This document shows positions 1,024 to 64,000 of a stretch of 64,000 nucleotides of DNA, one piece after another. The stretch lies in the IMG/VR virus record IMGVR_UViG_3300042259_000159. The stretch is one strand, 5' to 3'. The notes below the pieces were generated by a model. The model was given only the letters and a program-made list of their open reading frames with translations. It did no database searches and was not told where the DNA came from. The DNA comes from a virus. A program made the translations under genes and the position numbers. Each line of letters starts with the position of its first letter. Position 1 is the stretch's first letter.

Positions 1024-2010
1024 TTACGCGGGCATCAATTTACCCGCCCCGAAGTAGAAGGTCTCTCCTAGTCTTCGTCCTCTTGTGGCTTTTGTCAGGC
1101 CAAGCCAAGGCCACGGCCTTCCGTATTCGGGCTTAGTTCTTGCTTTTTCTTTTAAGGTAGAACCCTTGACGATACGGGTGTTCTTTGGGACTACAGTCTT
1201 CCACTTGGTGGCTTGCAGACACTCCGCTACCTTCCCTTCGAGGAGACAGTCATTAACATCCTTACACGGAAGCTCAGCAACATGCCCTCCGGGGAAGATA
1301 CGAACAAACTCTTCTGCTGCTTTCTGACCGGGTTCGTCCATGTCAGGGACGTACACTACCTTCTCAAACAGCTGACGAATCTTGTTTGCATGTTGGAGAA
1401 CAGCCTTCTGCACACTTCCTGCTCCTGAAGGAAGGCTCACAACAGCAGGAATGAGATGTTTGTATTGGGTGTTTGCTACGCTATCCCTGAGCATTTGATA
1501 CAAAGACATTGCATCAATCTCACCTTCGGTGATGTACAGAGTCTTTGCTCCAGCTGTGATAGCTTGTTTCCAACCAAAGAACGAAGCCCCTTTCAAAGAG
1601 CCTATAGCCCACATCCTCTTATCTTTCAGGATTCGTGCTTTATAAGCAGTGAGCTGCCCTCCTTCATCCGTGTAAGGAAAGAATACGATGTCAGGAGTAG
1701 AGCCATCCATAGGTGAGACACCTACTTTGACATTGAAATGCTCAAGGGTTTCTTTCCTCAGCTTTCTTGAAGGAAGAGGATGAGAGAGAAGACTAATTAT
1801 GTGTTTAATTTCTTCGTCTATCTCTTCCTTCGTCTTTTTAGCCACTACAGGAGTGTAGCCTTCAGGTTTGTCCTTATAGGGGTCAGGGACATATTTTCCA
1901 CAAGAGAAACAGTAGCCATCATAGCTGCCATCTTCTTGTAAAAACACTTGTAAACCTGAAGCTGTTCCACAAGAGTGAGGCAATTTTTCTACGCATACTC
2001 CTCGTTTCAT
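1024..2010 (-). CDS. DNA primase (zinc-binding domain + TOPRIM)
   Basis: Track ORF 328 aa. Cys-rich N-terminus (CGTASG...CFSCGKY) and TOPRIM acidic motifs (EGEIDAMS, DMDEPGQKAA). Confidence 0.75.
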   Translation of the reverse strand: MKRGVCVEKLPHSCGTASGLQVFLQEDGSYDGYCFSCGKYVPDPYKDKPEGYTPVVAKKTKEEIDEEIKHIISLLSHPLPSRKLRKETLEHFNVKVGVSPMDGSTPDIVFFPYTDEGGQLTAYKARILKDKRMWAIGSLKGASFFGWKQAITAGAKTLYITEGEIDAMSLYQMLRDSVANTQYKHLIPAVVSLPSGAGSVQKAVLQHANKIRQLFEKVVYVPDMDEPGQKAAEEFVRIFPGGHVAELPCKDVNDCLLEGKVAECLQATKWKTVVPKNTRIVKGSTLKEKARTKPEYGRPWPWLGLTKATRGRRLGETFYFGAGKLMPA

Positions 2011-2093
2011 ACCTCCTCCATGTTAGAAGTTAAAGGGGGAATTAACTTCCCCCTATTTATATATACGTCACAGACGAGAGAATGTGACAATTT

Positions 2094-2879
2094 TTATTGC
2101 ATATAATTCCGAATTGCTCTAGCGTATGCTTCAAGAGCAGTGCCCATAATGCCCGGAGCAGTGTTCACTTCCAAGACGTAAGCCATATTCGCCCGCTGGT
2201 TGTAGATAACATCCACTGCTCCGAAGTCAAGCCCAAGAGCTTTAACAGCGAGGAGAGCCTGATTCTGAACTTGGAAGGGGCAGGTGTCATTTACGTCAGC
2301 TCCGTCTTTGTCAGTCCGAACAAAGATGAATCCCTTCTCATGGTTGCGGATACGCCAATCCACATTCTTAATATTCATTTCGGGATTGAGGGCTTTCCTC
2401 GTGATGTCGATGATTCTCCCGTTAAAGACATGGACACGATACTCCTGCTTTTTCTTGATGTAAGCAGTGTAGAGAGGAGCCTCAGGAACTTTGCCATGAG
2501 GCTCCACCAATTCAATTCCCTTTCCGCCATACCCAACGAGAGTGTGACGAACGACTACACAACCTCCGTTTTCCGCCCACAACTGAGCTCTGTCTCGGTC
2601 GATAGTGAAGGCGGGAAAATTGACATACTCTTCATCTTCAAACACTTCAAAAGTACGAAGCTTGTTGGAAGCAATTGCCACTGCCTCAAAGTCGTTAAGC
2701 ACACGACAATCCTCAGGGATGTGCTTAGGACGGGTAGAGCAGCCCCAGTTGAGCACCATTTTATCGGGGGTCCATTTCCACTTGCTGCGTTCAGCTCGAA
2801 TGCGGAGAACACCCAATTCAGTAGCAAGGGCTTTAGCGGACGTAGACTCCATTTTGTAAGGCAGAATAAACAGTTTCAT
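2094..2879 (-). CDS. ATP-grasp family ligase
   Basis: Track ORF 261 aa. Glycine-rich loop GYGGKGIE and C-terminal VLEVNTAPG typical of the ATP-grasp fold. First gene of a tightly packed minus-strand cluster. Confidence 0.75.
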   Translation of the reverse strand: MKLFILPYKMESTSAKALATELGVLRIRAERSKWKWTPDKMVLNWGCSTRPKHIPEDCRVLNDFEAVAIASNKLRTFEVFEDEEYVNFPAFTIDRDRAQLWAENGGCVVVRHTLVGYGGKGIELVEPHGKVPEAPLYTAYIKKKQEYRVHVFNGRIIDITRKALNPEMNIKNVDWRIRNHEKGFIFVRTDKDGADVNDTCPFQVQNQALLAVKALGLDFGAVDVIYNQRANMAYVLEVNTAPGIMGTALEAYARAIRNYMQ

Positions 2880-2889
2880 TTTTTGTCTC

Positions 2890-3714
2890 CTAGATGTCTA
2901 TTAAAGGTTCGTCGATAAACACTGCGTTCATAAAGTCAATGCCATTGACAATAGAGTAGCAGCGATAAAGCTGTCTTTTGAACGAAGCGTTAAAGTCTTC
3001 GTAGGCAAGAGCGAAGGGAAACACTTCCCTCGTAAAGGCTATTGCGTCTTTAGACGCTTCTTTCAGGAGGGCATGAGGGTCTTCAAAAGTACAAGCTTTC
3101 TCCCGAAGAGAGAGGAGAAGGCGGAGCCACTGCTCAATCACTGCGATGTCCACAGTCCCACGCATAGCTCTGAACTCAATCGAACCATACTGAGGCGTAG
3201 CCTTGATGTTCATGCTTGCATAACGAATGTCGTTGTCATCCAAGGCATTAAAGTTCATGCTTTTTGCAAGACCCTCCAGTTTGAAGATGAGTCCTTCCGC
3301 ATCAAAGGAAGAGAGGCAGAAGAGATTGCCTTTACGCGTTTCTCCACAAAACTCCAGAAGAGCGTCTTCATAAAGCAAGTAGAGTATAACAAAGTTGAAC
3401 CACTGGCCCACTGTCAATTTTTGAACGTTAATATGAACATGAACAGATGTTCTGTCCGAGAGGACAACATCCGCTCTCCTGAGATGTTCTCTCAGCATAC
3501 GGAGCCGACGACAAGCCCCCGGGAAGCTGATGGGTTGAGGAAGGACGTATTCCTTCGGGTCATGCCCCCCAATAGGACGAAGAGAAGGTTCGATATGTAC
3601 CTGCCACCCATTCACCTGACGGGGGAGGTCACGACCTTCCACCTCTATTTCAATGCCAATGTCCCCATTCTTAGGGACCAACCCCAGCATATCGGCAATA
3701 GTTATTTCAGCCAT
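2890..3714 (-). CDS. putative amidoligase (glutamine-synthetase-like COOH-NH2 ligase)
   Basis: Track ORF 274 aa. N-terminal GIEIEVEG motif resembles the E-x-E nucleotide/metal site of GS-like amidoligases. Assignment from motif recall only. Confidence 0.45.
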   Translation of the reverse strand: MAEITIADMLGLVPKNGDIGIEIEVEGRDLPRQVNGWQVHIEPSLRPIGGHDPKEYVLPQPISFPGACRRLRMLREHLRRADVVLSDRTSVHVHINVQKLTVGQWFNFVILYLLYEDALLEFCGETRKGNLFCLSSFDAEGLIFKLEGLAKSMNFNALDDNDIRYASMNIKATPQYGSIEFRAMRGTVDIAVIEQWLRLLLSLREKACTFEDPHALLKEASKDAIAFTREVFPFALAYEDFNASFKRQLYRCYSIVNGIDFMNAVFIDEPLIDI

Positions 3715-4268
3715 TCTTCTCCCACCACCTCTTTGATGTAGTTAGCATAGAAGTTGTCTGCCACAATAAACTTTTCTTCATCAATATCTGCCACAGGCAT
3801 AGTCCGATAGAAAAGACTCCGCTCCCCAATAGCGAATTCCCTATGGAAGGCTATGCTTCTTCTTCGAGAACGGTCTTTCTCAAAGCATTCTTCCACCGTA
3901 GGGTAGTCGGCTATAATGGTCTTTGCCAAGTCTCTTACATTGGGTTGAGCACTTATCCCTACATAGTTGGAACGAAGGTCCAGACGGTCAAGAACCAATC
4001 CTTGCTTCTGCTTCCGATGGGGCCAGCGAGCCACATACATTGAGACCCCAACTAGGGTGTTCACATAGCCCAAAGGAGGAGAGGCAAAGTCCCATCCCTC
4101 ATCCCTAATGTGGATGCGAGCATCTTCTCCTTCTTCATCAAGAATGTCATACCCATTAGCAAATCCATCTTCCACATGCCGGATGTAGAAGGGGCTGCCA
4201 TTATACCTCACTACCGTTCCTGCCAGACGCATATTAGCGTCATGGTCGTTATTAAATTTCAACAGCAT
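3702..4268 (-). CDS. hypothetical protein within amidoligase cluster
   Basis: Track ORF 188 aa; overlaps neighbours by a few codons, consistent with operon packing. Confidence 0.5.
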   Translation of the reverse strand: MLLKFNNDHDANMRLAGTVVRYNGSPFYIRHVEDGFANGYDILDEEGEDARIHIRDEGWDFASPPLGYVNTLVGVSMYVARWPHRKQKQGLVLDRLDLRSNYVGISAQPNVRDLAKTIIADYPTVEECFEKDRSRRRSIAFHREFAIGERSLFYRTMPVADIDEEKFIVADNFYANYIKEVVGEEWLK

Positions 4269-5043
4269 GGGGCACTCCCAGATTGTACTTCTTAATAAGA
4301 GCGACTGCCGAATCTACATCCGAAGTGTTGATGATGTTGGTGATGTCTCCCTCTTCCTCAGCCAAGTCTCTTCCTGCAAGCAAGTCAACAACAGCTTGTC
4401 GGGAAGCGGAGAACACCCAACGCATCAGACGCTCTTCTTTAAGCCAAGCATTGGACAGAGTGCGATATTCCATGCCGTAAGGCTTAACACGAAAAGCCCC
4501 TGCCTTCCCGTAGAGTTCTCTCCTTTTGGTGTCCTTGTCGAACAGAAGAGAAGGCAATCCAAGGTAGAAATCCAGCTGCCGTGCAAGCTGACACGAAGCA
4601 AGGAAAGCTCCGAAGTCGTTCACATCATGCTCCATATAGCCGATATGAACATGCCCAGCAGCAGTGCGGAAGTCTCGATTACCGTCAGGAGAAGGGTTGA
4701 TGTCCTGCGTCCACCCATTGTAGTCGGGGTCACACCCCAATTCAAGAGCGGCAGGAGGCTGAGTAGCCATATACTCCTTGCCAAAATGAGCCACAGGCTC
4801 AATGACAATTTCCTCCTTCACCATACGACGAAGCTGAGCGAATACATGCTCAATGTTGCTGACGAAGGTGTTTTCATCAGCTGCCGGCTCAATGTTAAAC
4901 TCAAGAGCCATACCATCCACCTGTACAGCCCCCTTCTCAACAGGGAAAGGGGCTTCCTTAGTCCCGGGAATGAGGCCGTAGCCGGAGATGAACTTCCCAT
5001 TGTCCTTCACAAACAGTTCGGGGTCGGTGCCAATGTATATCAT
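4252..5043 (-). CDS. hypothetical protein, possible second COOH-NH2 ligase-like enzyme
   Basis: Track ORF 263 aa (MIYIGTDPELFV...AAGHVHIGY). Sits between the amidoligase-like gene and the amidotransferases. Family assignment tentative. Confidence 0.4.
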   Translation of the reverse strand: MIYIGTDPELFVKDNGKFISGYGLIPGTKEAPFPVEKGAVQVDGMALEFNIEPAADENTFVSNIEHVFAQLRRMVKEEIVIEPVAHFGKEYMATQPPAALELGCDPDYNGWTQDINPSPDGNRDFRTAAGHVHIGYMEHDVNDFGAFLASCQLARQLDFYLGLPSLLFDKDTKRRELYGKAGAFRVKPYGMEYRTLSNAWLKEERLMRWVFSASRQAVVDLLAGRDLAEEEGDITNIINTSDVDSAVALIKKYNLGVPHAVEI

Positions 5044-5054
5044 GTTATTCCTCC

Positions 5055-6266
5055 TTAAAAGGGTATATTAGAGTCATACAGGGAGACAAAGTCTTTGTCT
5101 TTCAGGCATTCCAAACAAACAGAATCGTATTCCGAGATGATTGCGATTTTCTCATTCCTCTCATAGAACTTCCCGCACCAGTCGCAGGAGTGGTAAGGGT
5201 GATGCGGGTAGCTTATCTTATACTCAATCTTAGGGGCTTCTTCCTCCTTCTGATTGATGGGAATGATGGAACCCACAGTGAAATACGTCTTCTTGTCGAG
5301 CGTTTGCCCGATGAACAATATCTTTGCCCGAAGGGGGACGCCCACAGGAACATCCGAGTTGCCATATGCGAAGTGACGAGCTTCAATATCCTCTCCAATC
5401 ACCTCACCGAAGTAGTCGACATTCTTCCCATATGTGCTTTCCCTTTTGTGGAACTTCACAGTGGCATACTCATCTTCTCGATAGGTGCGAAGATTCCCCA
5501 CTGCTTTTCGTGTTGCCCTCTCCCAATTATTCCACCCTTGGTGGATGTACGTTGTCTTGACAGGAGGCGTGTACGAGCAAGGAGTGAGCTTCTTGGTAGT
5601 GAGTTTAAGGCCGTTGCTCAAGTTCCACGAGTAGAGAACATTTTCTTTCACTTCGCAAGCTTTCATGCAGGGTATTTTGTTTCTCCAACATGCCGCATGA
5701 ATGAAGAAAGGCTCAGAAGCCCAGAACACCACCTTCTTTTCTTTGTCAAGCATATAGTAGAGAGGCCGCTTATCGTTCCGCAGCATGTTGAGCGTGTCTT
5801 CGTTTTCGTCATACCAGACAAGAGCAGCTGCCCCGCAAAGATTCTGCCAAGTGTCTTCCACACCATGTATGGACATATGGTGGTAGATGTTGGAAGAATC
5901 AACATCGAATTTCTTGTAATCCGCCAGAAGATGTTGGGCTGTAAGTGTTCCGTTATGCACTCCTGTAATGTGCCCATGCTGAAACGGATGAGCGTTTTCC
6001 TCGATAATAGTTCCTTTCGTTGCTGCTCTATTATGCCCTATAAGGCATTTCAACACTTGTGAAAAGATAGGCTGTACTTTACCAATGGTGACAAAGTCAT
6101 AGGCTGCCAGAAGAGATTTTTCGATAGTGACTTTCTTCGTATGGCGATTTACTCCAGCGAGACCCACGGAATCAACTCCGCGTATTTCGTCAAAGATGAG
6201 CATATCCTTGACTGCCTTCTCCTCTTTCGTTGTAATCAGTCCAGCTGCTCCAATAATACCACACAT
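5055..6266 (-). CDS. class II (Ntn-type) glutamine amidotransferase domain protein
   Basis: Track ORF 403 aa. Starts MCGIIG, i.e. Cys immediately after Met as in Ntn amidotransferases. Confidence 0.7.
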   Translation of the reverse strand: MCGIIGAAGLITTKEEKAVKDMLIFDEIRGVDSVGLAGVNRHTKKVTIEKSLLAAYDFVTIGKVQPIFSQVLKCLIGHNRAATKGTIIEENAHPFQHGHITGVHNGTLTAQHLLADYKKFDVDSSNIYHHMSIHGVEDTWQNLCGAAALVWYDENEDTLNMLRNDKRPLYYMLDKEKKVVFWASEPFFIHAACWRNKIPCMKACEVKENVLYSWNLSNGLKLTTKKLTPCSYTPPVKTTYIHQGWNNWERATRKAVGNLRTYREDEYATVKFHKRESTYGKNVDYFGEVIGEDIEARHFAYGNSDVPVGVPLRAKILFIGQTLDKKTYFTVGSIIPINQKEEEAPKIEYKISYPHHPYHSCDWCGKFYERNEKIAIISEYDSVCLECLKDKDFVSLYDSNIPF

Positions 6267-6391
6267 AGAATACTCCTTTTTCGCACAGAAAAGGGGTTTT
6301 AAGCCCCGTTTATTTGTTTTGTGGACAATGAGATGTCATTGCATCTACCATCGCTTAGAACCAATTCTCGAAAGAATTGGCTCCAAGAGGG

Positions 6392-7006
6392 TTAGATGCC
6401 GAATACATCCTTCAGTACAGTGAAGAACAGCGTTCGAGTGTCATCCTTCCCACCATATTCAGGATGGGGTTGGAAGCACAGGCTCTTAGTCTTCGGGTAG
6501 ACGACAATTTCAGCTTGGTCGTCACGAAGAACAGAGCGCACCCTTCTTTCAGCCGAGAGAAGAGTGTTGTCGATGCAGTCTTCCACTTCTCCGAATCCTT
6601 CAAGACGACCATGACGGGCAGGAATCATCATCTGGTGGTGAGTGGAGGTGACTTTGTACTTTTCTCCCCTCCAATCGAGAGTGTGTGTGCCTCTGATGGC
6701 ATGACCCGTGACATCCTGCCGCATACTTCCACCATTCATCACATTGAGGAATTGCCCCCCACGGCATATTCCCACCAATGCTGCGTTGTGTTGTGTGGCA
6801 AAGAGGTAGTTGGTTATGTCAGCAATGTCTCGCTGAATACAATTATGGGAAGCCCTGTTGAGTTCACCATACAGAGAAGGGGTGACATCATATCCGCCAG
6901 AGAACACAAAGAGGTCAGCTTCCTCCATCTGTGTTGTCATCTGGTAGCCTGCATTGAGGAACATGGTGGACACAGCAATGTCTTGCGTAGACATAAAGAA
7001 TTTCAT
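6392..7006 (-). CDS. class I glutamine amidotransferase-like protein (gamma-glutamyl hydrolase type)
   Basis: Track ORF 204 aa. Nucleophile elbow GICRGGQ. Confidence 0.7.
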   Translation of the reverse strand: MKFFMSTQDIAVSTMFLNAGYQMTTQMEEADLFVFSGGYDVTPSLYGELNRASHNCIQRDIADITNYLFATQHNAALVGICRGGQFLNVMNGGSMRQDVTGHAIRGTHTLDWRGEKYKVTSTHHQMMIPARHGRLEGFGEVEDCIDNTLLSAERRVRSVLRDDQAEIVVYPKTKSLCFQPHPEYGGKDDTRTLFFTVLKDVFGI

Positions 7007-7815
7007 CGAAATCTCCTCAGGTTGTCTATTGTGTTGACGACAATTTCATCAGTGCCGGGAATATCTTTGTCGTATTCCAGCATGAGAGTATTGCCATTCC
7101 GTGTCACTCTTTTCCCGCTCTCTTTGAGAGCAGATTCAATAAGGTCTATGACAAGAGGCCGATTGGTGTAACGGTTCAGAGTTTTTTCTACTCCTCTGCC
7201 CCAGTCACCCCCATTAAACGGGTCATCCAAGTGCCTTTTTTCCAACTGCTCCCCGTATATGAAGGCGGACGCAGACCTCACCGTAAGACCAGTATCGAAG
7301 AGGGAATGAGGTCCTCTTCTCGACGCAATATATTTCTCCCCACGATAGAAGTAGGCACTAAGCAACGCCACGGGTGGAGACACTTCAAACTTCTTCATAT
7401 ACTCCACCATCTTTTCTATACGGAAATCCTCATGGACGTCCCACGGAAGACGAGCAAGAGTAGCTGCCGTCAGCAAGATGTTTCTGGGAGCGTCCAGAGA
7501 AATGTACACCCCTCCTTTCTTCTTGTTTGTGTTGTTCTCATAATAGCCCTTGAAGCCGCTTTTCTTGAACAGCCAAGGCCAGTAGTGTTCTTTCAAGAAC
7601 TCACCTTCAGACCTAATACCTCCTGCCGGCCCGGGGACACAGCAGAGGTGAGTATATCCATTTTTGAGGGTGTGCGAATTCTTGAGCCATGCAAGGCACA
7701 CTTCGTTCGGAAAAGATTCACACTCTCTCGTTTTTTCGTTCACGAGAAGGTAGGGTTGAGACCTTACGTTATCATCCTCCTGACATTTCTTCACTTCCTT
7801 AAAGAAACTCCTCAT
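7003..7815 (-). CDS. hypothetical protein (last gene of amidoligase cluster)
   Basis: Track ORF 270 aa; stop overlaps the start of the class I amidotransferase gene. Confidence 0.5.
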   Translation of the reverse strand: MRSFFKEVKKCQEDDNVRSQPYLLVNEKTRECESFPNEVCLAWLKNSHTLKNGYTHLCCVPGPAGGIRSEGEFLKEHYWPWLFKKSGFKGYYENNTNKKKGGVYISLDAPRNILLTAATLARLPWDVHEDFRIEKMVEYMKKFEVSPPVALLSAYFYRGEKYIASRRGPHSLFDTGLTVRSASAFIYGEQLEKRHLDDPFNGGDWGRGVEKTLNRYTNRPLVIDLIESALKESGKRVTRNGNTLMLEYDKDIPGTDEIVVNTIDNLRRFR

Positions 7816-8077
7816 GTTTCTCTCCTTTCTTCTCTCTGTATAATATATATATATATATTATATAATAATATATATTATACAGAAGTTAATAGTTTAGTTA
7901 AGAGCAGGAAATCCTGCCCTCTCTAAAGTATTAACAGTAAGGGTCTTCGTCCTCTATCGACCAGTCAATCGGCTCCTCAGGCATAATCGTCACCATTTAT
8001 TTGCGAGTAATCTATTCCTTGTTATTGAAAGTTTCTTGTCACATTTTCCATTTTCCAACGTATAATATATTAAGAGA

Positions 8078-20031: not shown

Positions 20032-20607
20032 CTTAAAAATAGACTATACATATTTTCTAAGTATAAGTCAAGAGTTTATTTATTTTATTATTATTTATCT
20101 TAATATTTCATATCTCTACACCTGAAAGGGATTCGATGGGTTTGAAGAGGTTTGGATAGACCACCCCCTATATACCAAGTATTAATACTTAGCTAGAGGG
20201 TCTTTCTATCCATTGATTCGATTGGGAATCAGATGGTCATATCCACAGACTTGATTGCAATCCTTGATTATAATCAGTCGTACCTTTCTCAGTACGGGAT
20301 ATGGGGAGTATATACACGTTGTGCTAGACATATATACCCTACTGGAATCATAACGAAGGATAGCTCCTCCGGCAGCACCCACACCAGTATTAGACCTAGG
20401 CTCTTGCTTCGCTGCGTCCCTCAAGTAACAAGTTCACCACATTTTGCGGCTTATACCCTGCTGGCCCTTGTTGGGGGTCGTCACAACCAACAGGCAGGAG
20501 TCTTGACAAAAGACCTCCTGTCACATACAGTATATGAAAGTGGGCGAACCAAAATCTTTTTGCATGTGAAAAATAAATATACAACAGAGTTTTCAAAAAG
20601 TCAAGAC

Positions 20608-40414: not shown

Positions 40415-41269
40415 TCATGACTCCACGGAATCAAGCAAACTTGGCTGCTTATTTCTACGGCTAATAGCCTCGGCGTCTAGCCGCTTAGCGATTATCTCGC
40501 AGTACTTTTCTTCGCGCTCTATCAGGATCCAGCGGCGGCTAGCACGCTCGGCTGCAACTGCTGTTGTGCCGCTGCCCGCGCAGAAATCAAGCACTGTTTC
40601 ACCTTCGTTGGTGTAGGTTTTGATGAGGTATTCCATTAGGGCAACAGGTTTTTGGGTTGGATGGAGTGCTTCAGAGTCTTGGCTAAATTTAATAACACCG
40701 CGAGGGTAGTTTGTAAATTCTTGTTTATAGCTTTCAGATTTGGTCAGATCATTATGTACACTTGTCCTATCCCCATTCTCTTTTAGAGAATCCTTCCGTG
40801 TCTTTGTCCCCGTGTTTTTTACCACCTTGTCCACCTTTACAAGCCCCTGCGCGTTATAAGTTGGCTGCTTGCGGTAGAATACAAGCACGTCCTCAAATCC
40901 TTTTAGCGGCATCCTTTTGGCATTGGGGAAATTTGTTGGACGACCTTTCTCCCAGACCCATGTGTATTTAAGCATTTTGAGATTACTAGCCCCCAAAAGA
41001 CTTGTAAACGGCTGGCTAGCAGTCATAACAACAGCCCCACTAGGCTTGATAGCCCGCTTCAACTGCTCCCACATTGGCTCTAGCGGAATAATGCTATCCC
41101 ACTTACACGCCGTCATTCCAATTCAGCCGTAGGGTGGATCGCATAACACCAGGTCTATAGAGCCGTCTGGGATATATTTCATAACCTCAAGACAATCTCC
41201 ATGAACCAACGTGTTAGGCAATACGCACCCTACGTGCTGTATCTCCTTTTCGTTAGTTATAGTAAACAT
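40415..41269 (-). pseudogene. beta-class N6-adenine/N4-cytosine DNA methyltransferase interrupted by an in-frame TGA
   Basis: Upstream segment MFTITNEKEIQHVGCVLPNTLVHGDCLEVMKYIPDGSIDLVLCDPPYG ends at TGA (41123-41125), then continues in the same frame as track ORF 40415-41116 (HPTQKP, DFCAGSGTT). Confidence 0.6.
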
Positions 41270-41811
41270 TAAATAAAATACTCCTGTATGTTTAGTTTCA
41301 AATTATTCCAATCTGTTTGTGTCATATCATTTTTGCACCTATTTTCAAACCACGACAAAAACTGCAAGTTTTCTATGTCATTAGTTCCTCCTTTTGCTTT
41401 TGGTGTTATGTGGTCTATTGATGGCTTTTTGTATTTTTCTTTACCGCCGCTAACCCATCTTTCATAAATCCTATTAAATTGATCGTCATAGTAAAACCTA
41501 CTTATATAACTTTTGTACCATTCAGTTGATATGTCCCATCTGCCTGAACGATTCGTAATTACATCATTTAACAGCTTTAATTTATCAAAATCCTTAAACT
41601 GCATTAACCAATCAGTCGTTACGTCAAACCTCAAGTGTGTTGCCATGTTGTTATAATTGCGCTCAATATCACAATTAAATTTTTTAACACCTCTTAGATT
41701 CTTGGGCTTTCTGGTCTGTACCCCATTTCTCTTCAGGATTCTTGATATTAGTTTGTGATTAGTACCTAGCTTATCCGCTATAGAGCGCATTGAATCGCCA
41801 CTTTTGTACAA
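41269..41811 (-). CDS. HNH homing endonuclease with N-terminal helix-turn-helix
   Basis: Track ORF 180 aa; HNH core SIDHITPKAKGGTNDIENLQFLSWFENRCK; lies between the two methyltransferase genes. Confidence 0.7.
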   Translation of the reverse strand: MYKSGDSMRSIADKLGTNHKLISRILKRNGVQTRKPKNLRGVKKFNCDIERNYNNMATHLRFDVTTDWLMQFKDFDKLKLLNDVITNRSGRWDISTEWYKSYISRFYYDDQFNRIYERWVSGGKEKYKKPSIDHITPKAKGGTNDIENLQFLSWFENRCKNDMTQTDWNNLKLNIQEYFI

Positions 41812-41816
41812 TTCAA

Positions 41817-42218
41817 CTAATGGATAAATAGGTAATCCCCAATCTCCTCGGGGCGTTTAGCATTTTTTACCTGCTCATTATAAGGAAGAACCAAGAGTTC
41901 ACCAACAGCATCCCTTTTGGATACAGGCAGTTTTTCTTCCAGCCGTTTTTGCATAGACTCGGAGTCCATTCCCATCAACAGCTCAAAAATCTCCAAATCT
42001 TTTAGACGATTATCGGTGGCAGGTAGAAGCGATCCAAGTATACAGGCTTTATTGAGTATCAGGGGTTTGCGCCCTTTCCAGTAACTGCCAAGAGCGGTCA
42101 ATGTTTTGCTCTGAACAGCGCTCTGTTCTTTAAAACTTTCAGCGGATATTTTTTGCACTGGAAAGAGATGTTCAATCAGTGCCGGTTTATCTTTCCATTC
42201 GAACGGTTTCAGTGCCAT
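41817..42218 (-). CDS. hypothetical protein
   Basis: Internal Met (MALKPFEW) of track ORF 41817-42293; overlapping ORF 42218-42448 in another frame leaves the start unclear. Confidence 0.35.
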   Translation of the reverse strand: MALKPFEWKDKPALIEHLFPVQKISAESFKEQSAVQSKTLTALGSYWKGRKPLILNKACILGSLLPATDNRLKDLEIFELLMGMDSESMQKRLEEKLPVSKRDAVGELLVLPYNEQVKNAKRPEEIGDYLFIH

Positions 42219-42592: not shown

Positions 42593-43417
42593 TTAGATGA
42601 TTGCTTTATTCTCATGTGCACTCTCAATGCGCCGCTTGGCAATGTTGAAATAGCCTTGGTCTAGCTCAATACCGATAAAGCAGCGGTTCAGCAGCTTGGC
42701 CATCTTGCCAGTCGTACCGCTGCCCATGAAGGGGTCGAAAATCGTATCGCCTTCGTTTGACCAGCTTGATATATGTCTTTGCGCTAATTTTTCAGGAAAA
42801 ATTGCAGGGTGCTTAAACGCCTCACTATCCATTGTTGAGTGACCTTTACCTGTCGTTATGTACCATATATTTCCATCTATCTTATCTAATCCAACTGGTT
42901 TCCTTTTCTTGCCACTTCTGGCACTGCGCATTTTTTCAGTTGTAGATGAAAAATAACTGTTCTGACGTGAAGTTTCTTTTTCCGGATATTTTGTCGGAAC
43001 TCGAATGGCGTTAAAGGTTTTAGGTCTACCCTTACTAAAAACAAACATATACTCAAAATCTTGTTCGTATCTGTTGTGGTTTTTCGGTAGTGCGTTTTTA
43101 TGGTATATCATCGTATCATGCAGCCGGAAGCCGCACTCCATAGCCCACAATGCTTGCTTAAAGCTAGTACCTGTCTCACTACCCTTAATCGTGGCGTCAC
43201 CAACAACCCAAACAACAACCCCACCATCTTTAGTAACACGGTATAGGTCTTTAATAACCGCCTTCCAAACATGCTCTCCCCACAACGCATTATTGCCGTT
43301 ATAAGTGCGCAGATTATCGTATGGTGGGCTTGTTACCGTTAAATCAACAATACCATCAGGTATTTCTTTCATCCGCTCAAGGCAATCGCCTAGCATCAGC
43401 TTAATCATCATCACCAC
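42593..43417 (-). CDS. beta-class N6-adenine/N4-cytosine DNA methyltransferase
   Basis: Track ORF 274 aa; motif IV SPPY near the N-terminus, HPAIFP, motif I DPFMGSGTT near the C-terminus. Confidence 0.8.
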   Translation of the reverse strand: MVMMIKLMLGDCLERMKEIPDGIVDLTVTSPPYDNLRTYNGNNALWGEHVWKAVIKDLYRVTKDGGVVVWVVGDATIKGSETGTSFKQALWAMECGFRLHDTMIYHKNALPKNHNRYEQDFEYMFVFSKGRPKTFNAIRVPTKYPEKETSRQNSYFSSTTEKMRSARSGKKRKPVGLDKIDGNIWYITTGKGHSTMDSEAFKHPAIFPEKLAQRHISSWSNEGDTIFDPFMGSGTTGKMAKLLNRCFIGIELDQGYFNIAKRRIESAHENKAII

Positions 43418-55122: not shown

Positions 55123-55206
55123 TGGTAGGAGAAGAGAGATTCGAACTCTCAAGGAATAATCCGTCGAGGCTTAAACTCGATGTGTTTACCATTTCACCAT
55201 TCTCCC
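55123..55206 (-). tRNA. tRNA-Leu (anticodon TAA), type II, CCA encoded
   Basis: Hand-folded cloverleaf: acceptor GGGAGAA/TTCTCCT, anticodon stem TCGAG/CTCGA with loop TTTAAGC, long variable arm, T-arm GAGAG-TTCGAAT-CTCTC. Confidence 0.7.
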
Positions 55207-55245
55207 GTATTTTTTATCTACCATTCCGCCATTCCCGCATTTATT

Positions 55246-55323
55246 TGGTACCCACTGTGAGATTCGAACCCACACTAATCAGTTTCTAAGACTGATGCCT
55301 CTGCCAAGTTGGGCTATACCAGT
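55246..55323 (-). tRNA. aberrant tRNA-like gene (anticodon TAG, type I architecture, poorly paired acceptor stem)
   Basis: Good D-, anticodon (TCAGT-CTTAGAA-ACTGA) and T-arms, but 5' acceptor ACTGGTA mispairs with the adjacent 3' strand AGTGGGT. Confidence 0.4.
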
Positions 55324-55581
55324 ATTATGCTTATTATTTTATTTTGAAAGGCCATATGTATACACATATATATATATACATATATATATGTATAGAGCAA
55401 CCAAAATGGTTAAATAAAAAGGTGTTTTGTGGAGACACCAAACTCCTCCAGTTTTAGTGATCTGGAAACAATAAGCGGCGCAGGTGCTCTTTAAAACACG
55501 TGCTACCAAGCGTATAAATTGTCTAGGGGATTTCACCAAACACATTATGTTATTGGAGGGATCTTTCCCTAGACTCAGTAA

Positions 55582-55654
55582 AGCTCCTGACAGGACTTGA
55601 ACCCGCAACCGGCTGATTACAAATCAGCTGCTCTGCCAGTTGAGCTACAGGAGC
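55582..55654 (-). tRNA. tRNA-Thr (anticodon TGT), no encoded CCA
   Basis: Acceptor GCTCCTG/CAGGAGC, D-arm GCTC...GAGC, anticodon loop TTTGTAA, T-loop TTCAAGT. Confidence 0.7.
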
Positions 55655-55658
55655 AGAA

Positions 55659-55730
55659 CAGAGGGAGAAGGATTCGAACCTTCGAATGACGGGACCAAAA
55701 CCCGTTGCCTTACCGCTTGGCTACCCCTCT
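55659..55730 (-). tRNA. tRNA-Gln (anticodon TTG), no encoded CCA
   Basis: Acceptor AGAGGGG/TCCCTCT, anticodon stem ACGGG/CCCGT with loop TTTTGGT, T-arm GAAGG-TTCGAAT-CCTTC. Confidence 0.7.
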
Positions 55731-55738
55731 AAATTTTT

Positions 55739-55815
55739 TGGCTCCGGCGGCAGGATTTGAACCTACATTCGCAATGGTTAACAGCCATTTGCCTTACCAA
55801 TTCGGCGACACCGGA
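55739..55815 (-). tRNA. tRNA-Asn (anticodon GTT), CCA encoded
   Basis: Acceptor TCCGGTG/CGCCGGA, anticodon stem AATGG/CCATT with loop CTGTTAA, T-arm GTAGG-TTCAAAT-CCTGC. Confidence 0.7.
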
Positions 55816-55860
55816 ATGAACTTTTTATTTGTTATCAGCATTGTTTTGCTTTATTTTAAA

Positions 55861-55939
55861 TGGTCTCGGTGATTAGATTTGAACTAATGATTATTCCTGC
55901 TCCCAAAGCAGGTGCCATACCAAGCTAGGCGACACCGAG
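55861..55939 (-). tRNA. tRNA-Pro (anticodon TGG), CCA encoded
   Basis: Acceptor CTCGGTG/CACCGAG, anticodon stem CCTGC/GCAGG with loop TTTGGGA, T-arm ATTAG-TTCAAAT-CTAAT. Confidence 0.65.
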
Positions 55940-56416
55940 ATCAGGTGTGGTACCAAACTCCACTATGGGCAGAGGTTATAAGAAGGTCCGTACATGATAT
56001 AGACAGATATTCTTCCATAACAGCGGTACGGACGCTGTCTCATTTTTATATCTTTCAGTGTGCTATTACGCCAAAGGGAAATTAAGCCTTACCAGTTACG
56101 GGGTGCCCTTTTACTATCCACAAAGAATTTCAAATCGCGTGCATTCTAAGTATCGGAAAATTCTACAACCACTTAAAGTACACCTCGTTTAAGAGATAGC
56201 GACCTGTGCTTCGTCCCACTCTTTAAAGGATGGCTGCCTCAAAGCCCACCTCCTGAAAAATGCATGAAGGATTATCCCTCCTTCGCTAAATACAACCTAT
56301 CAATTTTAAGGGTTCTTGTCAAGAACATTTTAAGGTTTTTGAAATTTTTGTTGAACGCTGATTTGCTACGCGGGTACAGCGTTCGAAACCTCGATAGCAT
56401 CCTTGCCGTTGGCAAA

Positions 56417-56506
56417 GCTGTCAGGAGCCGCAGGAGGAGAATTGAACTCCTCTGGCATCAACACGCAGTCACCACAACTACATCTACCGTTACGGGTATG
56501 GCTCCC
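56417..56506 (-). other. tRNA-like element (T-arm and acceptor helix, non-canonical D/anticodon region)
   Basis: Minus-sense GGAGCCA...GAGGAG-TTCAATT-CTCCTC...CGGCTCC; lies just outside the right-end hairpin of the tnpB element. Confidence 0.3.
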
Positions 56507-56574
56507 CATCCTAGTCACCTGTTGATACCTTATAGGTTCAGCCCTACCAAGGGCACTGCGGCTTAAGTGGGTTG

Positions 56575-56860
56575 GTTGGTGCAGATTGTGAACGTACCCC
56601 CGCCTATAGAGGCGGAAGCTTCCTGCTTCAGCGAGAACAGCACCAGTAACTCCGAAGAGTTGTGGCGAATTACACTCTCTCCACAGGCGTAAATTCCCGT
56701 GCGACCCACGGTACTTTATGAGTTACGCTAGGCAGATATTCGCCCAGCTTCTTCTCTAATATTTATTGCAGCGTTCTTGTCACGGTTATGATGACTGCCA
56801 CACTTAAGGCAATCCCATTCCCGCACAGACAAGTCTTTGGTATCCTTGTTCTGGTAGCCA
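56575..56860 (-). ncRNA. candidate TnpB guide RNA (omega/reRNA) region at the element right end
   Basis: By analogy with IS200/IS605 TnpB systems the guide RNA overlaps the tnpB 3' end and runs to the right-end hairpin (56600-56615). Not folded or aligned. Confidence 0.3.
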
Positions 56861-57965
56861 CAGACATGGCATAGCTGACTGCTTGGATACCATTTGTCTA
56901 TCTTGATAAGTTGCTTACCCTGCCATGCAAGTTTGTATTTCAGCATACTTGTGAACATGCTCCAGCCGTTGTCGGATATGGATTTACCAAAGTTGAACTT
57001 GCCACCCTTCTTTCGCTTCGCCATGTCCTTTACGCTAATGTCCTCTATGCCAATCACATCATAGCGGTCTGCAAGATAACGAGCTTTCTTATGCAGGAAG
57101 TCGCGGCGTTGATTAGCAATTTTCTCATGGAGTACAGCCAAACGTAGTCTTTGTTTATTCCTATTACGGCTCCCTTTTTGTCTCTTGGAGAGTTTTCTTT
57201 GTGCCTTGATCAATCTCTTTTCGGCTTCCCGTAAGAAATTTGGATAATCGGCGTTGTCCTCATCGGAAGCAACATACATCCCGTGCATAGCAAAATCCAA
57301 TCCAAGAAAATTCTTCGGTATGATGGGAAGTATTTGGTTTTCATACTCCACCAAAATACTAATATAGTATTTTCCTGACGGTGTTTTACTTATGGTTACA
57401 GTCTTTATGGTGCTATTCTCCATCAATGGACGATGCAGACACAGCTTTACCCAACCTATTTTCGGCAGCTTGACTTTGTTTCCCTCGATTCTTACAGAGC
57501 CATGTTGGTTGTTCGTAGAATATGAAGCATGACCCGCTTTCTTCGACTTGAAGCGTGGCTTGCAAAAATGCTTCCTATTGCTCCAAAAGTTGTTATACGC
57601 CTTGTTCAGGTTTATTTGGGCATTGGCGAGAGCAAGGCTGTCAACCTCTTTCAGCCAAGGAAACTCTTTCTTGTACTGTGCAGGTGTGTTGTTCAGCCTC
57701 TCTCCTGTTTCCTTATAGTGATCAAGACGATCTCCAAGCATCTTGTTATAGATGAATCTGGCACTGCCGAAAGTCTTGGCAAACATAATCTTCTGTTCAA
57801 TTGTCGGGTAGAGTCTATATCGGTATGCCTTATTCACTATAATCACCTGCCTTGATTTTCTATGTATTTACGAATTGTCTCAAACGGAGCAATTATCTGG
57901 CTCAACTACTTACGTAAATTCGCTAGACACACCTTCATCCCCCACCTTAGAGGTGGAGGGCTTCT
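56590..57965 (-). mobile_element. IS200/IS605-family insertion element carrying tnpB only
   Basis: tnpB flanked by similar imperfect palindromes: cccgcctatagaggcgg (56600-56615) and ccaccttagaggtgg (57942-57956). No Y1 tnpA. Inserted between tandem tRNA-Leu genes and the rest of the tRNA array. Confidence 0.65.
56728..57846 (-). CDS. tnpB: TnpB (RuvC-like RNA-guided endonuclease, IS605 OrfB family)
   Basis: Track ORF 372 aa; N-terminal YRYRLYPT, RuvC-like region, C-terminal zinc finger CHVCGY...CLKCG. Confidence 0.85.
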   Translation of the reverse strand: MIIVNKAYRYRLYPTIEQKIMFAKTFGSARFIYNKMLGDRLDHYKETGERLNNTPAQYKKEFPWLKEVDSLALANAQINLNKAYNNFWSNRKHFCKPRFKSKKAGHASYSTNNQHGSVRIEGNKVKLPKIGWVKLCLHRPLMENSTIKTVTISKTPSGKYYISILVEYENQILPIIPKNFLGLDFAMHGMYVASDEDNADYPNFLREAEKRLIKAQRKLSKRQKGSRNRNKQRLRLAVLHEKIANQRRDFLHKKARYLADRYDVIGIEDISVKDMAKRKKGGKFNFGKSISDNGWSMFTSMLKYKLAWQGKQLIKIDKWYPSSQLCHVCGYQNKDTKDLSVREWDCLKCGSHHNRDKNAAINIREEAGRISA

Positions 57966-57987
57966 GGCGGGTTAGGTTAAATCCCTT

Positions 57988-58012
57988 GTGTCTACTAATT
58001 CCACCAATCGGG
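57988..58012 (-). pseudogene. truncated tRNA 5' fragment (acceptor + D-arm) adjacent to the tnpB element left end
   Basis: Minus-sense GCCCGATTGGTGGAATTAGTAGACAC duplicates the 5' 26 nt of tRNA-Leu(TAA) at 58023-58109, including the aaagatttt spacer, but has no anticodon or T-arm. Confidence 0.45.
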
Positions 58013-58022
58013 CTAAAATCTT

Positions 58023-58109
58023 TGGTGCCCAATGCAGGACTCGAACCTGCACGCCATTTCAGGCAGGAGGGCTTAAACCTCGTGTGTCTACCAATTCCAC
58101 CAATCGGGC
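58023..58109 (-). tRNA. tRNA-Leu (anticodon TAA), type II, CCA encoded
   Basis: Acceptor GCCCGAT/ATTGGGC, anticodon loop TTTAAGC, long variable arm, T-arm GCAGG-TTCGAGT-CCTGC. Confidence 0.65.
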
Positions 58110-58118
58110 TAAAATCTT

Positions 58119-58202
58119 TGGTGCCTCAGACAGGATTCGAACCTGCACGGATCTCTCCACTTGGTCCTAAGCCAAGCGTGTCTGCCATTCCACCACTGAG
58201 GC
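58119..58202 (-). tRNA. tRNA-Leu (anticodon TAG), type II, CCA encoded
   Basis: Acceptor GCCTCAG/CTGAGGC, anticodon stem CTTGG/CCAAG with loop CTTAGGA, long variable arm, T-arm GCAGG-TTCGAAT-CCTGT. Confidence 0.7.
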
Positions 58203-60713: not shown

Positions 60714-61423
60714 TTAGATAGTAAACAGTTTTTCAACACCTTTCTTGCTTCCCGTGTTCTTTGTCAGGCTGCTTACAATTTCTTTTTTCCAAATGCAAGT
60801 AAAATCTTCTGGAGCATTATATTCTGAAACAAACACCTTATGTCCCTCATTAGCCTTATCTCTGCACCACTGCCAAAACAACTCATGGTCAAAATCATTA
60901 GAGTACTTTGTTGTCCCTGAATAGGGCGGATCACAGTAGATTAAGCTGTTACTGGGGATATGTAGCTCATCATAAGGACAACACAAAAATTCTACATTTT
61001 GAATTAGCGAGGACTGTTTTATTGCTGATTGCTTACTACGTTTTGTTTGTATTATCATGTTTTCAATATCACCTTTTGTTCCTGCTTTGTCCCGCCTATA
61101 CCCCCCAAAAAATTTACCACCAAAAGACATTGAAAATGCTGTAAATCCAGTTAAACCATCAATATTTTTGTGTTTTTTCATTGAATTGTACATATCTTCT
61201 GTAATAATTTCAGGAATACTTTTTGGTGCATCGCGTATAAGTTTTAATGCTTCTATTACATACGGGCTGCAATGGCGGCCCCAATACGATTCCCATCAAC
61301 CTTATCAATCATGTTTCCACCTCCAACAAACGGTTCAACCCACCACTGGTCAGGTTTTCTTTCTGCAAGCATAATTGGGAGGATATACTTTGCTATTCTG
61401 TTTTTACTTCCCATGTATTTCAT
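60714..61423 (-). pseudogene. Dam-like N6-adenine DNA methyltransferase requiring a -1 frameshift
   Basis: N-terminal piece MKYMGSKNRIAKY...EPFVGGGNMIDKV (ATG 61421-61423 after AGGAGG) stops at 61256; the DPPY-containing C-terminal part (track ORF 60714-61193) continues in the -1 frame as ...PYVIEALKLIRD. Frames diverge near a GGGGCC run around 61255-61270. Confidence 0.55.
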
Positions 61424-61772
61424 ACTTACCTCCTGTTTTTGTTTTAGTTGTAAGGTGCTTTTACCTGTCAATATCAAACTACCCCTATTCCCCCTGTTTG
61501 TCAATACCTTATTCTTATCTAAACATAAGATATATATATTATATATATATTCTTTATATAATATAAATATATATACTTTATATATAGTATATTTATATAA
61601 TATATATATGTATATAATATATATACTCCTACTCACTACGAGACACATACATAATATATACATTAACCCTTCCTGCAAAGGAAGCCGTAGGATACCATAA
61701 AAAAGAGATTTTGTCAAGCATTATTTTAAGAAATGTTAAAAATAATTTCCTAACCTAATCTCTATTTTTTAC

Positions 61773-61821: not shown

Positions 61822-62016
61822 ATGGAGGAAAATATGATATACACATACAGGTGTTCAATCTGCAACAAGCTTTTTACCTCGCACGAGGATGTATACGATG
61901 TATACTTAGAAAGCTTTGTTTGTCCTGAATGTCTGCGTGAGGGAAATATCTCCGCTGTCTATGGCGAGGATTTCTTAGATTCGCTGGACATGTTCGACAA
62001 CCCAGAAGATCTTTAA
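61822..62016 (+). CDS. small zinc-ribbon protein
   Basis: Track ORF 64 aa; CSICN...CPEC. Confidence 0.45.
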   Translation: MEENMIYTYRCSICNKLFTSHEDVYDVYLESFVCPECLREGNISAVYGEDFLDSLDMFDNPEDL

Positions 62017-63037: not shown

Positions 63038-63350
63038 GAACATTTTAATGTTTTTCCGGCAGATGCCTTACGAACATCTGTGAACATTTTGGGTGCCGCA
63101 GGTTCGGGAAAGTCATACATAATGAATATGATACCTTTGAGGTATGTCGATTGCCCCAACTTTAGGGGGATTGTCTTCCGAAGGGAAACGACACAGCTTA
63201 CAGGTGAAGGGGGGATGTGGGATACAGCAACGGAGATATACTCTGAGCTGCCTAAAAATATCAGGCCCAAAATATTGAAACATAACCTGAGAATGATTTT
63301 TCCGAATGGGGCAAAAATTAAGTTTTCACACATGGAAAATGATAATGATT
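63038..63350 (+). CDS. terL: terminase large subunit, exon with Walker A
   Basis: Frame opens after the intron core; Walker A GAAGSGKSY. Exon ends are approximate because the reading frame stays open into the flanking intron sequence. Confidence 0.5.
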
Positions 63351-63585
63351 TCAGGAAACATCAAGGGTTAATTAGTAGCCCCTTGTGTTGGTGACAGCGC
63401 AAGCAAACTAACCTAATTCGGTGGAAGCCCAAACATGTAGGATGTGGGTGATACCGAGCAAGCCACGGCGTGTGTAACGACTAGTTCTTAGGAACGTAGG
63501 CCCAAGCGGGTCGAAACGGTTAGCATCTTATTAAGATGAAGATATAGTCTACTCTGCATGGAAACATGCAGCGGACACTTTATGT
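63350..63585 (+). mobile_element. group I intron core (candidate), copy 2
   Basis: R-like gtaacgactagttc (63474-63487), S-like gaagatatagtctac (about 63537-63551), P9-like hairpin ctgcatggaaacatgcag (63553-63570). Confidence 0.5.
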
Positions 63586-63594
63586 GTCGGGCAG

Positions 63595-63860
63595 ATGTTA
63601 GCGCCATCTGTTGAATATTATGTACAATATACCCTGATATGCTTTGATGAGGCAACACATTTCACTTTCCAACAAGTTGAATACTTAATGTCACGTATGA
63701 GAAGTAAAAGTAAGTATGCTTCTCGTATGGTTCTGTCGTGGATTACGCGACATGTATGGCGAAAGCTGTACTGGCAACTGTGTGAACTCAGGGAAACCTT
63801 AGCTGCTGCAATTGGGCAGAGGAAGAAGGCAATCCTGAGCGAAGCCTTCCCACCGGGAAG
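63595..63860 (+). CDS. terL: terminase large subunit, exon with Walker B
   Basis: Walker B ICFDEATHF shortly after the start of track ORF 63595-63888; 3' boundary approximate. Confidence 0.5.
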
Positions 63861-64000
63861 GAACGTGCAACGACCATCGAAAGCGTAACACCTGTTACAG
63901 TGAGTAGAGTACACCACACATGTGTGGTGGAAGCGCACAGCCCCTAACATGTAACGATGAGGGTGAAGATATGGTCTGAACCTACAGAAATGTAGAAAAA
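63860..64000 (+). mobile_element. group I intron core (candidate), copy 3, running off the window
   Basis: R-like gtgcaacgaccatcga (63864-63879), S-like gaagatatggtctgaac (63965-63981), P9-like hairpin ctacagaaatgtag (63982-63995). Confidence 0.45.

Follow-up and report, generated by a model that had tools for sequence, protein, structure and literature searches.

We asked why a DNA methyltransferase gene in a virus genome is written in two reading frames and whether it could still yield an enzyme. The gene lies in the window, by which we mean the whole 64,000-nt stretch of DNA that was analysed. The first-pass annotation had described a Dam-like adenine methyltransferase split by a -1 frameshift, with both halves intact and a strong ribosome-binding site in front, and had offered three readings: a recent inactivation, a homopolymer error or a programmed frameshift. 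The features of the locus are as follows.

61423..60714, minus strand: methyltransferase locus, D12-class (Dam-like, PF02086) N6-adenine, in two frames
61689..61717, minus strand: promoter-like site upstream of the methyltransferase gene (TTGACA, 17-nt spacer, TATCCT, with a TG), a consensus match only
61429..61434, minus strand: Shine-Dalgarno sequence AGGAGG, with a 5-nt spacer to the ATG, read from the sequence
61423-61421, minus strand: start codon ATG of the methyltransferase N-frame
61256..61423, minus strand: N-terminal ORF, 55 aa plus TAA, MKYMGSKNRIAKYILPIMLAERKPDQWWVEPFVGGGNMIDKVDGNRIGAAIAARM
61255-61253, minus strand: second stop codon, TAG, after the TAA of the N-terminal ORF
61256..61295, minus strand: 40-nt overlap of the two frames, the sole passage for a ribosome from the N-frame to the C-frame
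61267..61275, minus strand: lesion relative to the intact sister allele L005, from the DNA alignment: CC insertion (61275-61274), C>T (61272) and A>G (61267)
60714..61265, minus strand: C-terminal homologous part in the -1 frame, with PYVIEALK, the target-recognition region, FGGKFFGG and DPPY

The strong ribosome-binding site is indeed present, AGGAGG at 61434-61429 lying 5 nt from the ATG. From there the N-frame reads MKYMGSK...EPFVGGG...NRIGAAIAARM and then meets the tandem stops TAA TAG at 61258-61253. Motifs X (KYMGSK) and I (EPFVGGG, 61336-61316) are present in it, together with a mutated motif II (GAAIAA instead of GADxN). The C-frame is -1 relative to the N-frame and is open from 61295 to a stop at 60716-60714; its homology to methyltransferases restarts at PYVIEALKLIRD (61265 onward) and continues through FGGKFFGGYRRD, YCDPPYSG (DPPY at 60932-60921) and EKLFTI. 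The earliest ATG in the C-frame is at 61193, with no recognisable ribosome-binding site there. The upstream promoter-like site is one copy of a recurring intergenic CTTGACAA box. Between the Dam locus and a divergent gene at 61822 we observed an AT-rich degenerate tandem repeat (61510-61627; TA-rich, with periods 11, 24 and 39), and the part just upstream of the Dam ATG (61425-61510) is the sole stretch of the locus that varies between strains.

Do the two frames belong to one gene? Against the PF02086 profile (gathering score 22) the N-terminal piece scored 21.8 bits and the C-terminal piece 29.3 bits, matching consecutive parts of the profile (positions 1-41 and 122-197, respectively), and the joined 236-aa sequence scored 52.7 bits (E=6e-14). 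The split by a -1 frameshift is therefore borne out, with pieces of PF02086 in two frames. The joined sequence aligned end to end with intact homologs of 234-251 aa, and a database search with it returned thousands of single-ORF homologs of ∼235-250 aa, among them a protein (P0001) at 96% identity. Single-frame homologs span 229-268 aa, whereas in the window a 55-aa ORF is followed by a remainder in the -1 frame. Motif I (FxGxG) is present, the EPFVGGG of the window aligning with VEPFVGAG of E. coli Dam, and the catalytic motif IV (DPPY) is present in the C-frame. The motifs follow the alpha-group order (X, I, II, target-recognition region, DPPY). What the window lacks is the acidic residue of motif II (xADxN), as it reads GAAIAA instead of GADCN. 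Since the single continuous frame of the family is absent, we would class the locus as a pseudogene derived from the D12 family and not as a functional member of it.

The protein at 96% identity is encoded by the intact sister allele L005 (JGI 3300036466, contig Ga0377201_016077), which is uninterrupted and is 96.9% identical to the window in DNA. Its flanks, start codon and ribosome-binding site are the same as those of the window locus. The lesion consists of an inserted CC and two substitutions within 9 nt, and the gene measures 710 nt in the window versus 708 nt in L005. At the junction the window reads GGGGCCGCCATTGCAGCCCG where the intact allele reads GGGGCCG--ACTGCAACCCG, and the two alleles can be told apart by GCCGCCATTGCAGCC (broken) and GCCGACTGCAACC (intact). 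This is not a change in homopolymer length. The frames had been placed as overlapping near 61255-61270, which is right in substance and in coordinates; the lesion itself lies slightly upstream (5-20 nt off), at 61275-61267, and the GGGG run of the overlap is at 61282-61279. Besides changing the frame, the lesion removes the Asp and the Asn of motif II: L005 reads IGADCNPYV, whereas the window reads IGAAIAA(R). The two alleles also differ at 15 positions in a 50-nt patch around DPPY, which suggests recombination.

The two lost residues are invariant or nearly so. All 119 full-length homologs have the motif II Asp, and 114 of them the Asn that comes two residues later; the Asp aligns with ADIN of E. 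coli Dam (PDB 2g1p). Across 61285-61256 of the overlap there is no Asp or Glu codon in any of the three frames, so no route through a frameshift can restore the acidic residue. Both halves had been taken as intact, but with this Asp and Asn lost they are not. In class I methyltransferases generally, the acidic residue of motif II hydrogen-bonds the ribose hydroxyls of the cofactor. For RlmJ, a class I enzyme that makes m6A, such a hydrogen bond between the acidic residue of motif II and the ribose is documented (PMC3814359); the role of Asp54 of E. coli Dam is not stated in PMC4417163. Judging from its conservation, an enzyme without the Asp would be inactive, and we infer that methyltransferase activity has been lost at this locus.

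Taken together, the locus is very probably a recently inactivated D12-class N6-adenine DNA methyltransferase gene, i.e. a pseudogene. One compact compound mutation (the CC insertion and two substitutions, in 9 nt) would have moved the final three quarters of the gene to the -1 frame, and the same mutation would have replaced the motif II Asp and Asn, predicted to position the ribose of S-adenosylmethionine. As the signals for initiation of transcription and translation appear to persist, a 55-aa N-terminal peptide would be expected; the C-terminal fragment would at most be untranslated or inactive, and no methyltransferase activity would be expected from the locus. For annotation this means that the locus should be called a pseudogene, neither two hypothetical genes nor a 'corrected' intact methyltransferase, and that Dam-type methylation of the phage should not be predicted from the broken gene.

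When did the inactivation occur? With the lesion set aside, 13.5 synonymous and 6.5 non-synonymous changes separate the window from the intact allele (pN/pS=0.12), which fits a gene under constraint until recently. The coding sequence of the broken allele is 100% identical in four contigs, with no further decay, although four identical copies give no measure of decay or selection after inactivation. The inactivation would thus be recent relative to the divergence of the broken and intact alleles. Undamaged pieces and strong start signals would be predicted by continued use of the gene as well as by recency. Among the three readings first offered, recent inactivation is the only one to survive, with a lesion that is real and the low pN/pS. 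As to the mutational mechanism, the clustering of three changes in 9 nt, while the broken copies show no others, indicates either a single complex event or selection on that patch. Folded as a DNA hairpin, the mutant patch gave -4.7 kcal/mol versus -1.7 kcal/mol for the intact one, and neither differs from shuffles; a template switch at a quasi-palindrome is weakly compatible with these values, which are suggestive at most. A search of the window for an ectopic donor, using GCCGCCATTGCAGCCC with up to 3 mismatches, matched only the lesion site itself.

Is the damage confined to this gene? A TGA-interrupted methyltransferase elsewhere in the window had been reported, making two of three methyltransferase genes disrupted, and both statements hold: the in-frame TGA is at 41125-41123 and the third gene (43417..42593) is intact. 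The second and third genes lie in a cluster of DNA-modification genes.

44351-40415, minus strand: DNA-modification gene cluster
44351-43635, minus strand: PAPS-reductase-like protein
43417..42593, minus strand: third methyltransferase, intact, SPPY, 160 bits to PF01555
42293-41817, minus strand: stand-alone DUF1156 protein, 158 aa
41811-41269, minus strand: HNH endonuclease with an HTH domain, directly upstream of the second methyltransferase
41269..40415, minus strand: second methyltransferase, PF01555 type, interrupted
41125-41123, minus strand: in-frame TGA of the second methyltransferase

The order in the cluster is thus PAPS-reductase-like protein, intact SPPY methyltransferase, DUF1156 protein, HNH endonuclease and split methyltransferase. 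The second methyltransferase reads DPPYG*IGMTACKWD where homologs read DPPYGTTACKWD. Its lesion (41125-41114) is the 12-nt TGAATTGGAATG (a stop, GGA and ATG) in place of one Thr codon, a net insertion of 9 nt just after DPPYG, with ACGGC direct repeats on both sides. The gene thereby falls into an ORF of 48 aa and a second one of 233 aa, whose start is exactly at the junction. The junction resembles a stop/restart of the 'genes-in-pieces' type or the footprint of a mobile element. The same lesion is found in at least eight contigs; in one of the compared loci, L008, differences from the window are confined to 41800-42194.

With two methyltransferase genes broken, could the losses have been selected? 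This variant on the cause of the inactivation says that methylation became harmful to the phage, a virulent phage of an anaerobic community, under methylation-dependent restriction by the host (e.g. a Type IV or DpnI-like system), and that two knock-outs swept. We regard it as possible but rather unlikely. In two of the three methyltransferases a compact lesion lies exactly at a cofactor or catalytic motif, and each lesion is fixed in all contigs seen, but the population is near-clonal, so that fixation could come from drift or hitch-hiking. Of the 4-base palindromes, GATC is the most strongly depleted in the window (97 observed versus 191 expected from trinucleotides, an observed/expected ratio of 0.51), which implies that restriction pressure on that site has existed. 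However, the depletion would be explained just as well if the phage avoided ordinary restriction at the unmethylated site. The next most depleted palindromes in the window are GGCC (0.59) and ACGT (0.66). The depletions suggest past restriction pressure on GATC, GGCC and ACGT sites. A further part of the selection reading, that every one of these compact multi-change lesions records a single selected event, draws on the three changes in 9 nt of the Dam lesion in copies that are otherwise unchanged; it is a tentative suggestion that we consider improbable. The phage lineage has probably lost most of its capacity for self-methylation, which would be of interest only if it were tied to a methylation-dependent host defence.

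The pseudogene reading has to be weighed against the possibility that the frames are joined during translation. A programmed -1 ribosomal frameshift, or another form of recoding, would give a full-length methyltransferase-like protein, and the strong ribosome-binding site, the 40-nt overlap of the two frames and the halves that are undamaged apart from the lesion are what it would lead one to expect. The overlap (61295-61256), however, contains no slippery heptamer of the form X XXY YYZ; all heptamers of the gene lie downstream of the stop of the N-frame. The GGGG run would favour +1 and not -1 slippage. Nor is there a significant RNA structure: a 101-nt region folded with a minimum free energy of -17.5 kcal/mol compared to a shuffle mean of -19.6 (z=+0.67), and the sole local structure is a small imperfect hairpin of 6 bp on the lesion itself. 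The shift is also not conserved: neither the sister allele, 96% identical though it is, nor any of the 119 full-length homologs has it. It is likewise missing from 14 IMG/VR relatives (38-72% identity), each of which has its gene in one frame; these loci share with the window the methyltransferase only and not its neighbours. Moreover, every possible product would be without the invariant motif II Asp. The programmed frameshift put forward earlier, for which heptamer, structure and conservation in homologs are all missing, is therefore very improbable, and it is hardly conceivable that non-canonical frameshifting yields a catalytically dead, DNA-binding Dam-like protein. A phase-variable methyltransferase of the phasevarion type does not fit, the longest run in the overlap being GGGG and the lesion not being a change in the number of repeat units. 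A genetic code with TGA as a sense codon was rejected: of 63 long ORFs, 13 terminate at TGA, an ATGA stop/start overlap closes the second methyltransferase, and no suppressor tRNA was found among the 8 tRNAs of the window. The window uses the standard genetic code, with all three stop codons in use.

Could the true gene be intact and the lesion an artefact of sequencing or assembly near the GGGG and CC runs? The GGGG run (61282-61279) and short C runs do adjoin the lesion. Against this, the difference from L005 is a dinucleotide insertion with two substitutions in which the run length is unchanged, and one and the same allele was recovered in four contigs. In L001, L002, L003 and L004 (from samples JGI 3300042258, JGI 3300042267, JGI 3300042268 and Logan SRR35183615, and thus from two assembly pipelines) the coding sequence is identical to that of the window, lesion included. 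Both the C-terminal ORF (P0021) and the 55-aa N-terminal ORF are present on these four contigs, and in L003 and L004 the N-terminal ORF is annotated as a 55-aa gene. Where L003 and L004 depart from the window, they do so solely in the 85 nt ahead of the ATG, with AGGAGA instead of AGGAGG as ribosome-binding site, and because of this difference at least two strain backgrounds carry the broken allele. In a census with one pattern for both alleles, there were no hits in metagenome_contigs or in genome_contigs, collections that evidently lack these samples, and in viral_contigs nothing beyond the known contig. Because four samples, two pipelines (JGI and Logan) and two backgrounds share the lesion, error is effectively excluded, and the probability that the gene is intact is very small. 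The homopolymer error proposed at first fails on the same grounds, the lesion being a CC insertion with substitutions that four samples share.

Natural two-subunit methyltransferases and phage enzymes with genes in pieces exist, but an active two-chain methyltransferase formed here from the 55-aa N-peptide and a separately translated C-fragment is scarcely credible: although the other motifs are kept in both pieces, the first C-frame ATG (61193) is 60 nt downstream of the stop of the N-terminal ORF and lacks a ribosome-binding site, the motif II Asp and Asn are gone, and the split is found in no homolog.

The locus sits in a large virulent phage; the largest database contig with the broken allele is 117 kb. 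The window encodes a DNA polymerase, a primase-helicase, an anaerobic ribonucleotide reductase, a ligase, a tRNA nucleotidyltransferase and a TnpB-like transposase. The following features of this context are mentioned below.

63080-64000, plus strand: large terminase gene, near the Dam locus, with two group I introns
55123-58202, minus strand: eight tRNA genes, including two tRNA-Leu(UAA) and two tRNA-Leu(UAG)
57846-56728, minus strand: TnpB/IS605-like transposase, phrog_506 at E=2.5e-119
52220-48849, minus strand: 1123-aa ORF, matching profiles of anaerobic ribonucleotide reductase NrdD only over residues ∼842-1119

The terminase gene looks fragmented, and we considered whether the broken genes reflect general decay of the genome or poor assembly; this was rejected, as the appearance of the terminase is explained by its two group I introns (Rfam RF00028; 63359-63571 at 76 bits and 63728-63997 at 77.5 bits). 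The sequence at the exon ends is ...FRKHQGL, followed by QYTLICFDEATHF. Both introns are too short for a homing endonuclease gene, and the second reaches the end of the window. The tRNA-Leu(UAA) and tRNA-Leu(UAG) pairs flank the TnpB gene on either side and are not sequence duplicates of each other. Copies of the CTTGACAA box occur, for example, at 20502, 28585, 30161, 31618, 38087, 60455, 60634, 61711, 61772 and 62051; they are intergenic, on the coding strand of the downstream gene, often with a TATAAT-like hexamer ∼17 nt later, and they are probably a set of phage early promoters of the sigma-70 type. In the region 2000-8000 of the window, several ORFs of 260-290 codons occupy the same stretches on both strands (e.g. 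2094-2879 minus and 2097-2918 plus, or 4252-5043 minus and 4267-5058 plus), which suggests an unusual codon or composition bias. For the N-terminal ∼840 residues of the 1123-aa ORF, no PHROG family was found at E≤1e-5.

Finally, we asked how the locus compares with known systems. In dnaX and in the tail assembly chaperone G/GT, both with a programmed -1 frameshift, two frames also overlap with the downstream one at -1. In these genes, however, the slippery heptamer is conserved, a stimulatory element is usually present as well, and the shift is kept across divergent homologs; none of this is seen here. With E. coli Dam, T4 Dam and DpnM (PDB 2g1p, 4rtj and 2dpm), VEPFVGxG, the xADxN motif and DPPY can be aligned, but the similarity is only distant (E=3e-4 to 6e-3, with E. 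coli Dam at E=3e-4). The label 'Dam-like' is thus apt at the level of the family (PF02086), while GATC specificity cannot be assumed because the similarity to Dam is so distant. A further comparison is with the D12-class enzymes (PF02086, PHROG 56), such as those of Vibrio, Shewanella and Cellulophaga phages. The intact sister protein matches phrog_56 at 3.8e-48, and the D12 genes of cultured phages reach a DNA identity of only about 72-75%, over partial stretches. These enzymes share their order of motifs with the window copy, which differs from them in being frameshifted and without the motif II acidic residue. With no sign of a new mechanism, this is an ordinary case: a known family, in which a gene has undergone the common fate of frameshift pseudogenisation.
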